In this document: one piece after another, positions 26,824 to 29,309 of the stretch
How the letters are laid out: the number at the start of each line of letters is the position of its first letter
How positions within the stretch are numbered: the stretch's first letter is position 1
Source of the DNA: Candidatus Caldarchaeum sp.
Lineage (GTDB): Archaea > Thermoproteota > Nitrososphaeria_A > Caldarchaeales > Caldarchaeaceae
Length of the DNA: 41,429 bases
Assembly: GCA_038844785.1 (NCBI GenBank)
Contig: JAWBRA010000015.1
Coordinates: 1-41,429, forward strand
Direction: 5' to 3'
Notes under the pieces: generated by a model
What the model saw: the letters and a program-made list of their open reading frames with translations, nothing else
What the model was told of the DNA's origin: nothing
Database searches by the model: none
Translations under genes and position numbers: made by a program

Positions 26824-26893
26824 CAACTCATCGCCGAAAAAGCTTCGCACCTTTCCGGACGGCGTGCAAACCTCATGTGTGAGAGGATTTTTA

Positions 26894-26952
26894 GGGGTCG
26901 GCTCGGCTCTTCCTGCATCACGTATCAGTCTGGGGCAGCAGCCTCATCCCCC
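26894..26952 (-). ncRNA. Box C/D methylation-guide sRNA (double guide, probably targeting 23S rRNA)
   Basis: Minus strand reads GGGGGATGA(C) GGCTGCTGCCCCAGA CTGA(D') TACG TGATGCA(C') GGAAGAGCCGAG CCGA(D) CCCC, with a terminal GGGG/CCCC stem. The D guide is complementary to the conserved archaeal 23S sequence UCGGCUCUUCC. Confidence 0.8.
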
Positions 26953-27044
26953 GTATTGGACGTATAATAATCGGCTAATATGTGTTGCACGACCCTGAAA
27001 AAACTTAAAACAAACCAGTTAGGCATATTCGCCGCGTGGTGAGT

Positions 27045-27155
27045 ATGAAAAGCGAATTTTTTGCAAGGATAGAGGAAGAGGAGGAGTTTGAAGAAGAGTG
27101 GGAGGAGGAAGACTTCGAGGAAGAAGAGTGGGAGGAAGAGGAGGAAGAATTTTAG
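27045..27155 (+). CDS. 36-aa extremely acidic microprotein
   Basis: MKSEFFARIEEEEEFEEEWEEEDFEEEEWEEEEEEF*; GGTGA SD at 27038-27042; AAAAAACTTAAAA promoter-like element upstream; mixed GAA/GAG codons. Confidence 0.7.
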   Translation: MKSEFFARIEEEEEFEEEWEEEDFEEEEWEEEEEEF

Positions 27156-27431
27156 TCACTCACCTGTCTCCTCCCCCTCCTTTTTGTGGGTGTAGAGAAC
27201 TATCGAAGTTACAGCACTCTTGACACCCTGTATGGCGAGTATCTTGTCTTTGAGAAAGTCTCTGAAGCTGGATATGTCCTTCGCCACCACCAGCGCTATC
27301 AGGTCGAACTCTCCCGTCACCTCGTAGACGTCCACAACTTCGGGCAGCTTGCTTATCTGCTTGGCAACACGGTCGATTGAGTTAGACTCGGCGAAAATGT
27401 GTATGATGGCTCTTACCCCCGGAAAGGACAT
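27156..27431 (-). CDS. Stand-alone Lrp/AsnC ligand-binding (RAM) domain protein
   Basis: LPEVVDVYEVTGEFDLI...GVKSAVTSIVL; no HTH domain. Confidence 0.88.
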   Translation of the reverse strand: MSFPGVRAIIHIFAESNSIDRVAKQISKLPEVVDVYEVTGEFDLIALVVAKDISSFRDFLKDKILAIQGVKSAVTSIVLYTHKKEGEETGE

Positions 27432-29309
27432 TTACTCACCCACCCTCTTCAGCGACACAACTCTACCGGGGTATCGGGTTATAAGGTTGTGTATGTTCTT
27501 TTCATGCCCTTTTTCGAAGACTGATTTATCAGCCCTTCTCTGGATAAAAGCAGCCAGGTCGAAAAAACCTTCGTCAAGCATCTTGGAAACAGTCTCCTCA
27601 AACTCACCAACCTCCACGACGCATTTCGCATTATACCCGTCGTGCTTAAGCCTCTTGCAGATGGATGTCATGTCCTCAAACACCTGCTTTTGCATCTGTC
27701 TGGGGTCGTCAGCCAGGTTTAACGGTTTTTCGATGATGCTAACAAGGGTTAGGTCAAACCTTTTGTCAAAGGCGTGTAGTATCGATTTGTATGCTGTTTG
27801 CGGGTTTTCGTAGGGTCTGATAAGAATACCAACCTTAATCCTGTAGGAAAGAGGTTCGATAAGCTTAGCTTCCTCCCTGCTCAGAAACGGCGCCCTTATG
27901 TACCGTCTGTATGAAACATAGAACAACATTCCAGCCAACATCCAAAGCAAGCCAACAGCTCTACCGCCTGCATGGAACAGCAACATCAACGCGAAAACAA
28001 TCGTTAACCCCACGGTTCCGGCGACGCCCAGCAGAGGCACATCATGTCCTGCTATCCTGAGGTTAAACGGCTGTCTCCACGGAGTGAACACTTCTCTATC
28101 GATCTGCCTTAGTTTTAAGAACGTCGGTGCCAGGACAACGTAGCTTAACACAGCGGAAAAAGCGTAAACGCTTGCCAGCAACGGCACGTCTCCGAGGAAA
28201 GAAAGGACCACTCCCACAGCTCCGAACAAGACAATGGTCCTCGCAGGCGTCCTGAAACGTGGGTGGATGACCCGCAGCCATCCGGGGAGAAGCCTAAACC
28301 TAGCCATGCTAGCCGTCAGCCGCGACACTCCCACGAGGCCTGTGTTCGAGCTGGAGTAGCAGAGGATGAAAGCCGCCAGCCCCACCAACGGTGTTAAATA
28401 TTCTCCAACCGTCGGAAAAACTCTCACAAGCGCGTAGACTGGGCTATCGTATGCTGCTGCCACCTCTTCCCAGCCCATAGAGCCTTCCGCCAGAACGGGG
28501 AAAAGCACGGCAGAAACAGCGACTACGAGCACGACCATCTTAGCAGCCCTGGGAATAGAGAAATGGGGTCTACGTGTCTCCTCAGCGGCTTGGGCTATCG
28601 ACTCGATTCCAACGAAAGAAGCCATCGCCAAAGTAACAGAGTATAGAAAGTTGTTTACGTTTGTAGGCAGGGCGGGTATGTAAGATACGTCCTTGTGCGT
28701 GAAGTCGCTGCCCACCAAAAACACTTGTTTGATGAATAACAACCAATCGAATTTAAGCAGGAAGCCTGCGCCGAGAATGAGAACCTCTATAAAAAGACCC
28801 AAGAACACGAGGGATGAAACAACCATTGCAGAATATTTTATGCCGATGATGTTCAAAGCTACCAGGAGCAGCGCTAAAAAACCCGCCAACAGGCCCAACG
28901 AGGGTATTACCACTCCGTTAAACCCCAGCTCTGGGAAAACGAGAAACGGGACAAGCTGGCGGAGATATCCGGCTGCAGCTACGGCGAAAAGGGATATACA
29001 AAGGATGTAGGCCAGCAGCATCGCCCAACCTGCCAAAAACCCCACCAGGCTGTTGAAAGCCTTCATCGAATAGACATGAACGCCGCCCGCATAGGGATAG
29101 GTGGGAGCCAGCTCGGCGTAGATAAGCCCAACTATTGTGTACAGCAGTGCGGCGATAACGAAGGAGATTGGAGCCGCACCCCCCGCGAACATCGTTATAA
29201 CACCTAAAGATATGAATATGTTTGGGCCTACGTCTCCATAGCCTAGGGAGAAGGAGCCGAACCATCCCACCTCCCGCCTATAACCCGCCTCCTGTTTTGG
29301 ACGGCTCAA
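27432..29309 (-). CDS. APC family amino-acid/cation permease with a soluble C-terminal (USP-like) domain
   Basis: About 12 hydrophobic segments; YAEL...YP.AGG, GIESIAQAAEE and HPRFRTP motifs. Confidence 0.87.
   Translation of the reverse strand: MSRPKQEAGYRREVGWFGSFSLGYGDVGPNIFISLGVITMFAGGAAPISFVIAALLYTIVGLIYAELAPTYPYAGGVHVYSMKAFNSLVGFLAGWAMLLAYILCISLFAVAAAGYLRQLVPFLVFPELGFNGVVIPSLGLLAGFLALLLVALNIIGIKYSAMVVSSLVFLGLFIEVLILGAGFLLKFDWLLFIKQVFLVGSDFTHKDVSYIPALPTNVNNFLYSVTLAMASFVGIESIAQAAEETRRPHFSIPRAAKMVVLVVAVSAVLFPVLAEGSMGWEEVAAAYDSPVYALVRVFPTVGEYLTPLVGLAAFILCYSSSNTGLVGVSRLTASMARFRLLPGWLRVIHPRFRTPARTIVLFGAVGVVLSFLGDVPLLASVYAFSAVLSYVVLAPTFLKLRQIDREVFTPWRQPFNLRIAGHDVPLLGVAGTVGLTIVFALMLLFHAGGRAVGLLWMLAGMLFYVSYRRYIRAPFLSREEAKLIEPLSYRIKVGILIRPYENPQTAYKSILHAFDKRFDLTLVSIIEKPLNLADDPRQMQKQVFEDMTSICKRLKHDGYNAKCVVEVGEFEETVSKMLDEGFFDLAAFIQRRADKSVFEKGHEKNIHNLITRYPGRVVSLKRVGE

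Follow-up and report, generated by a model that had tools for sequence, protein, structure and literature searches.

Several described systems combine acidic stretches with aromatic residues. In eukaryotes, DSS1/Sem1 is an acidic, disordered protein of 70-90 amino acids (aa) with conserved Trp residues, and eIF3j/Hcr1, an ABCE1-associated accessory factor in ribosome recycling and initiation, carries an N-terminal acidic motif, while acidic, Phe-ended C-terminal tails are known from bacterial SSB (DDDIPF) and from gp2.5 of phage T7. The present study describes a gene that can be set beside these systems, located in a 41,429-nucleotide (nt) stretch of Candidatus Caldarchaeum sp. (Thermoproteota, Caldarchaeales; GenBank assembly GCA_038844785.1, contig JAWBRA010000015.1, positions 1 to 41,429 of the forward strand), hereafter the window. 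The gene is a 36-codon open reading frame (ORF) on the + strand (27045..27155, with the ATG at 27045 and the TAG at 27153-27155), and its product, MKSEFFARIEEEEEFEEEWEEEDFEEEEWEEEEEEF, would belong to an archaeal family for which no description was found, among the small, free-standing, acidic disordered proteins. This peptide is predicted to act in trans, most likely in translation or ribosome recycling, with a probability of roughly 0.4.

The product contains 22 Glu and 1 Asp (23/36 residues acidic) and 7 Phe/Trp at positions 5, 6, 15, 19, 24, 29, and 36, has a mass of ~4.7 kDa and a net charge of about -21, and lacks Cys. A hydrophobic/basic N-terminal stub (MKSEFFARI) is followed by an acidic run, which begins at residue 10 and comprises four to five Glu(3-6)-aromatic units, and by a hydrophobic final residue (Phe). 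The translation is exactly that of the first-pass annotation, made from the DNA letters, and the recurrence of F or W every 4-7 positions described there holds inside the acidic part (4, 5, 5, and 7), with 9 residues between F6 and F15. A free polyanionic peptide is the most reasonable reading of this product.

Like DSS1/Sem1, the peptide is free-standing, very acidic, and small, with aromatics as anchors, but it is half the size and far richer in Glu. None of 29 family members matched any DSS1 model at E<=10 and no Pfam family was hit at E<=0.01, in searches whose power is limited by low-complexity filtering. The likeness to DSS1/Sem1 suggested earlier therefore stands for composition and does not extend to the profile, and we know of no archaeal equivalents of the DSS1 partners (proteasome lid, BRCA2, TREX-2) in these lineages. 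The acidic motif of eIF3j/Hcr1 resembles the peptide by analogy of context, being acidic, Trp-containing, and disordered and working around ABCE1 and the small subunit; eIF3j/Hcr1 itself, however, is a 25-30-kDa protein with further domains, making the likeness one of analogy, not homology, and archaea, to our knowledge, lack eIF3. The tails of SSB and gp2.5 are similar in that an acidic stretch with a terminal Phe carboxylate serves as a protein-docking, DNA-mimicking element, but they belong to DNA-binding proteins, whereas the present peptide consists of nothing but the tail. LysW/ArgW, too, are small proteins of archaea whose C-terminal tail is acidic and contains Trp; LysW, however, includes a zinc-ribbon globule and terminates in Glu (EDWGE), its attachment site, and a LysW-type amino-group carrier was rejected here on account of the Phe end and the lack of Cys.

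For structure, an AlphaFold2 model of the product gave a single helix over residues 2-35 with a pLDDT of 94. An amphipathic helix was rejected, as aromatic spacings of 5-6 occur in the family as often as those of 4, 7, or 8 and no helical face is conserved. Because these spacings lack helical periodicity, little weight is given to the model, and a confident helix for poly-Glu would be a weak statement on the free peptide.

The coding nature of the ORF was examined at the levels of the genome and of the codon. When all 1,736,080 bases of the genome were scanned in six frames, it was the only frame with at least 12 Asp/Glu per 20 residues (17/20), the next three most acidic frames reaching 11/20, and the ORF region is single-copy in this genome. 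A codon-position test with 14 orthologues from the genera g1 and g3 (genera, families, genomes, and loci are given by working labels beginning with g, f, G, and L), anchored on the aromatic residues and covering 25 codons, revealed variable sites at 0/25, 2/25, and 25/25 of positions 1, 2, and 3, respectively, and both variable second positions were TTY/TGG, i.e., Phe/Trp swaps. Identity among the same orthologues was 0.99 for positions 1+2, compared with 0.58 for position 3 and 0.63 for the upstream 45 nt, with Glu almost never swapped for Asp, Gln, or Ser, length differences of whole codons, and conserved start and stop. A replicate of the test with 16 Trp-ended, ABCE1-adjacent genes found 1, 1, and 7 of 14 sites to vary at positions 1, 2, and 3, respectively. 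Because the third-position changes would be Leu/Phe replacements in antisense, the conservation does not lie in the opposite strand. The Glu codons of the ORF are mixed (10 GAA, 12 GAG), which had been ascribed to selection on the protein rather than to DNA slippage, and the codon-position test agrees with that view. Likewise, the frame, on whose presence in relatives the first-pass annotation had staked its proposal, proved to be conserved there and under selection. Collectively, these comparisons indicate that the ORF is a real gene, single-copy, old, and under strict purifying selection on every residue, and that it is an expressed-type protein-coding gene overlooked by gene callers.

Putative signals for expression surround the coding sequence (27045..27155, +), which ends TTT TAG and whose assignment is based on the 14-orthologue codon test. 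Upstream, an A-rich (BRE-like) stretch at 26997-27003 and a TATA-like CTTAAAAC at 27004-27011 form a promoter-like element (26997..27011, +) centred ~37 nt 5' of the ATG, and a TATA-like box (..AAAACTTAAAAC.. or ..ACTATAAATC..) lies at equal distance from the ATG in the orthologues of g1, g3, g2, and g4, consistent with a promoter function of this box. A GGTGA Shine-Dalgarno-like motif (27038..27042, +) precedes the ATG by 3 nt, and orthologues have a (G)GTGA or GGTG motif 3-9 nt before theirs. The TATA-like element and the ribosome-binding motif proposed earlier were thus both recovered and are both conserved in relatives. A GTG at 27036, which would give a 39-aa product, was considered as the start and rejected; the ATG at 27045 is taken as the start because it is conserved and the GTG is out of frame in g2 and g4. 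At its GA-rich end, the ORF forms a hairpin with the CT-rich stretch behind it, followed by a run of five T at 27181-27185 (27128..27185, +). The fold of 27025-27200 has an energy of -54.2 kcal/mol (z = -2.68), equalled by 0/200 shuffles, and the CCTTTTT behind the ORF is kept in genus g1, suggesting that the hairpin and T run are a likely transcript end and a candidate terminator.

One base on in the GA-rich DNA, a 35-aa frame that is rich in Lys/Arg and begins with TTG is also open (27088..27195, +). It is a by-product of composition, and the third-position changes seen in relatives would alter its residues.

The distribution of the gene was surveyed within its class, which is represented by one order only in the genome collection, making class and order counts identical. 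The pattern EEEEEF-stop, whose reversed control gave 0 matches, occurred exactly once in 55/76 genomes, with family counts of 16/17 in f1 (besides the genome of the window), 6/19 in f2, 0/4 in f3, and 32/35 in f4. Non-matching genomes are mostly variants; for example, one g1 genome ends in EEEEEDF and one g7 genome in EEEEF. Other final residues were found in positional orthologues, namely Val in g5 (2/2 examined), Pro in g11 and g12 (1/1 each), and Trp in genus g6 of f3 (3/3 loci), and no acidic micro-gene was found in the single g9 genome (89% complete). When loci around the orthologue of the neighbouring RAM-domain gene were inspected, 20/29 held an acidic frame of equal architecture, and the other 9 came from f2, where the gene lies elsewhere. 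The Trp-ended f3 gene is convergent to AsnRS-MTQ2, like the Phe-ended genes of g7 and g13, and the Pro-ended g11 gene is convergent to RAM-USP, like the Phe-ended genes of g2, g4, g10, and g14; because of this common synteny, the Trp-, Pro-, and Phe-ended genes are regarded as positional orthologues. A HMMER profile search of the class recovered 21/76 genomes, compared with 55/76 by pattern, and profile methods are therefore nearly blind to the family. At L048-L053 (genus g8), no ATG precedes the acidic run, and the candidate starts are only GTG/TTG, or the frame is open far upstream.

Across the phylum, 401 evenly drawn genomes were searched for EEEEEF-stop (Phe pattern) and EEEEW-stop (Trp pattern), which were found in 59/401 and 154/401, respectively. 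The Trp pattern was absent from the Phe-type families f1 (0/16), f4 (0/25), f2 (0/15), f16 (0/12), and f17 (0/6), as well as from six genomes of g61, while other genera of its family, f28, carry the Trp form. In the three genomes with both patterns, the Phe pattern forms part of either a larger protein or a Trp-ended micro-ORF. Judging from these distributions, the Phe- and Trp-ended genes are complementary and constitute one family, of which the gene here is the Phe-ended form. Its 127 distinct products have a median length of 36 aa and consist of 59% E, 7.2% F, 6.7% W, and 5.8% D; the longest unbroken Asp/Glu run is mostly 5-7 residues, and 81 of the products end in F and 37 in W, with E (4), P (2), V (2), and I (1) making up the rest. 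The features common to the family are a length of about 25-60 codons, more than half Glu, a Phe/Trp every 4-8 residues, a hydrophobic end, a single copy, and purifying selection, and all are found in the 36-aa ORF. Compared with the Trp-ended form beside ABCE1, the gene is alike in size, composition, Glu(3-6)-aromatic units, hydrophobic final residue, single copy, and lack of annotation, and within the class both forms have their synteny in common; it differs in being Phe-ended, in not lying beside ABCE1, and in being convergent to a RAM-domain gene.

A global pattern scan, among the 80 loci listed, gave micro-ORF-type matches in archaea only, the bacterial matches being tails of larger proteins or short frames of another type. 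Small zinc-ribbon proteins (CxxC..CxxC) with an acidic, Trp/Phe-studded tail ending in EEEEEEF were encountered at L210, L265, L236, and L285, in records labelled Korarchaeum, Thermococci archaeon, Caldilineales bacterium, and WOR-3 bacterium, and may be fused forms of such tails. L077 (a 188-aa frame) and L221 (a frame cut at the locus edge) encode larger proteins with a long Glu run and a Phe at the end, the tail here sitting on a globular protein without an assigned family; both loci come from Desulfurococcales-type genomes.

Neither the product nor the family could be traced in existing resources. Ten exact products, some from complete genomes, were all absent from a collection of ~15 billion predicted proteins, two longer members, of 40 and 56 aa, were without a match in homology searches, and Pfam, NCBIfam, PDB sequences, and the ESM Atlas returned nothing usable for the microprotein. 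No published description or annotation of the family was found in the literature, subscription journals and supplements being outside the scope of that search.

The immediate neighbour of the micro-gene is a stand-alone RAM (Lrp/AsnC ligand-binding) domain gene of 91 aa on the - strand (27156..27431; Pfam PF01037, E = 5.7e-21), convergent to it, with the two stop codons abutting. The RAM gene, with or without USP, is convergent to the micro-gene in g1, g3, g2, g4, g10, g14, and g11, and not in g7, g13, g15, and f3; it is taken as context only. The wider neighbourhood in the class comprises a tRNA-binding protein, AsnRS, a HemK2/MTQ2-type methyltransferase, an APC permease, RAM, and sometimes USP. 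Throughout the class, the micro-gene has no co-oriented downstream gene, and the next gene is convergent.

Elsewhere in the phylum, the recurrent neighbour is ABCE1. Of 42 Trp-ended loci, 21 are followed on the same strand by the start of ABCE1 at a distance of 43-205 nt and 5 by that start at 353-1345 nt; in 3 others, ABCE1 is found on the opposite strand, 675-769 nt away. Two of five further genomes (from f21 and f10) have an EEEW-ended ORF directly upstream of ABCE1, and the fixed patterns therefore undercount. Adjacency to ABCE1 is thus frequent in the family without defining it, and it is not seen here, the ABCE1 of this genome being on another contig (G000:C19:26490-28277) with no acidic ORF in front.

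Some of the genomes surveyed show further arrangements around these genes. In g61, the micro-gene at L068, L069, L071, and L073 is divergent, ~95 nt from a conserved 110-113-aa protein without a Pfam match, and in two genomes glutamate dehydrogenase lies ~140-240 nt downstream on the same strand. The ABCE1 of genus g7 (L174:312-3089 (-) and L175:1026-3800 (+)) has a frame of ~925 aa, compared with the usual ~600, in which an insertion of ~325 aa splits the second Fe-S motif (..CIGCGIC / insertion ..VHN / CVKKCP..); this looks like an intein within the Fe-S domain.

Considering both the selection on the gene and its surroundings, a role of the peptide in trans in translation or ribosome recycling is favoured. 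With ABCE1 unlinked and the next gene convergent, the gene cannot act only as a cis leader peptide, and because selection persists where no downstream gene is present in cis, the peptide is inferred to act in trans; at the very least, the peptide or its translation has a function of its own. Translation or recycling is favoured because ABCE1 is the sole recurrent neighbour phylum-wide and the neighbourhood in the class is translation-related. As envisaged, several weak Glu-aromatic contacts, together with the hydrophobic C-terminal carboxylate, would bind a basic surface with aromatic pockets, which may be that of ABCE1, of the small subunit after splitting, or of an associated factor, and this contact would tune binding or release.

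A more specific and rather improbable version of this role is that the peptide is a separately encoded 'tail', that is, an acidic-aromatic docking element used in trans with ABCE1. By analogy, it might be either an eIF3j-like recycling/initiation cofactor that times the release of ABCE1 from the small subunit or an Lto1-like adaptor that brings apo-ABCE1 to Fe-S insertion, and the aromatic punctuation might also let ribosomes finish an otherwise self-aborting poly-Glu. In the Lto1-like case, the acidic-aromatic C-terminal recognition signals of eukaryotes would have had a forerunner in the peptide.

Several observations weigh against a role in translation or recycling. The link to ABCE1 rests on genomic context and is absent in this class; 13/42 of the Trp-ended loci have no ABCE1, and these loci are not a random sample, consisting of the first 30 listed (2 of these without a micro-ORF of at least 15 aa) and 14 chosen ones. 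Moreover, three of the five further genomes (f5, f5, and f25) had no acidic ORF within 1.5 kb of ABCE1. The homology of such low-complexity peptides is not provable by alignment and would rest on synteny and complementary distribution, and the final residue is not always aromatic, which weakens the idea of an aromatic-carboxylate anchor. Contigs from RNA libraries (two metatranscriptome libraries of one study, 95-97% identity) span 27085-27498 and 27119-27221, where the 3' portion of the ORF and the RAM gene lie, and not 27005-27051; having no strand, start, or level, they could represent convergent RAM mRNA or DNA carry-over and speak neither for nor against expression of the ORF.

The alternative that survives best, itself unlikely, is a generic polyanion, i.e., a nucleic-acid mimic or a charge chaperone or shield for basic proteins (histones, Alba-type chromatin proteins, new ribosomal proteins, and polyamine-rich complexes) with no specific tie to ABCE1. 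The composition fits, with the 127 products together at 59% Glu and 6% Asp and the peptide here at a net charge of about -21, as does the fact that the gene stands alone among varied neighbours in a genome that encodes a histone. However, the histone fold PF00808 was detected in two of five carriers only (G000, the genome of the window, and G209), and not in G193, G116, and G134, which are 99-100% complete. A histone partner is therefore not general, and histone chaperoning, as proposed in the first-pass annotation, is not the function of the family. In addition, the strict number and place of the aromatics and the near-invariant Glu exceed the needs of a charge cloud, and a polyanion of this kind would leave the recurrent adjacency to ABCE1 unexplained.

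Distinctly unlikely as a full account is a translation-sensing ORF, in which translating a Glu run near the N-terminus would destabilise ribosomes (intrinsic ribosome destabilisation, IRD) and give a readout of how stable ribosomes are or how much recycling capacity exists, in cis on ABCE1 wherever the two genes are neighbours, while the aromatics let elongation continue. In E. coli, translation is reported to be aborted by Asp/Glu runs at the N-terminus, an effect opposed by bulky residues close to the peptidyl-transferase centre (bioRxiv 10.1101/2021.02.02.429294), and IRD also occurs in eukaryotes, where it is reported to leave small subunits in need of recycling, a clash of ABCE1 being noted (PMC9718836, PMC12673854). 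The gene itself offers support, as no other frame of the genome has a comparable acidic run, family runs are mostly 5-7 long, and the ORFs of many relatives lie 43-205 nt before ABCE1. The MgtL/IRD leaders of E. coli are likewise very short ORFs whose Asp/Glu run starts no later than codon ten and is interspersed with bulky residues (bioRxiv 10.1101/2021.02.02.429294), but the ORF here is much longer, has every residue conserved, and has no regulated downstream gene. Indeed, no co-oriented downstream gene exists here or class-wide, yet selection is equally strict; furthermore, no paper showing archaeal IRD turned up, although no search was aimed at one. Sensing of this kind does not exclude the favoured role in trans and may provide a second reason for the aromatic punctuation, but as a sole explanation it would fail where there is no downstream gene.

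Very improbable is an Fe-S delivery adaptor for ABCE1, in which the acidic tail with its -Glu-Phe or -Glu-Trp end would work like the C-terminal signal of Lto1 and of clients of cytosolic iron-sulfur assembly (CIA). In eukaryotes, the signal reported for cytosolic Fe-S clients and adaptors is [LIM]-[DES]-[WF]-COO- (PMC10245660), and Rli1 (ABCE1) requires the Yae1-Lto1 adaptor, whose Lto1 ends in Trp (PMC10245660, PMC4523923). The peptide resembles this signal in its acidic residue before a terminal Phe or Trp with a free carboxylate and in the ABCE1/Rli1 connection: its final two residues, E-F (E-W in relatives), fit, and the frequent neighbour ABCE1 carries two [4Fe-4S] clusters. On the other hand, the peptide ends in E-E-F with Glu as the third-last residue, not Leu/Ile/Met, Val- and Pro-ended orthologues exist, the deca-GX3 motifs of Yae1/Lto1 are absent by inspection, and the signal is described as eukaryote-specific and absent from archaeal client homologues (PMC10245660).

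Finally, the proposition that there is no gene, the frame being open by chance in purine-rich DNA or reflecting a feature of an RNA or the opposite strand, may point to the low-complexity GAR repeat of the DNA, to its other frames, which are all open as well, and to the absence of the product from every protein database searched, but it deserves practically no weight and is already refuted by the codon tests, unless the orthologues are contaminants of one another, as substitutions show a period of three, start and stop are conserved, indels are whole codons, one copy per genome is found across the class, and the window has no Rfam match at gathering score.

Upstream of the micro-gene, the window also holds an element of ~60 nt on the - strand (26893..26952), at which contig depth in two DNA runs exceeds that of the flanks several-fold. 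Its ends coincide exactly with the branch points of many contigs, and it also occurs in RNA-library contigs with other flanks. It matches the C/D-box families sR60 (E = 0.16), sR23, sR1, and sR35, all below the gathering score, and is probably an unannotated C/D-box guide RNA, divergent from the micro-gene. A repeat or mobile origin of this upstream region was rejected for the genome of the window, where it is single-copy.

If the reading of the gene given here is true, many heat-loving archaea carry a strictly conserved gene that has been overlooked by every annotation pipeline, and its recurrent place before ABCE1 would point to an unrecognised component or control of ribosome recycling, a step that is common to eukaryotes and has been studied mostly with archaeal ABCE1. 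The ORF also provides a natural extreme case for the translation of long acidic runs near the N-terminus. To this picture the window adds a lineage in which the gene has left ABCE1 but remains under equal selection, an argument for regarding the peptide itself as the product that functions.

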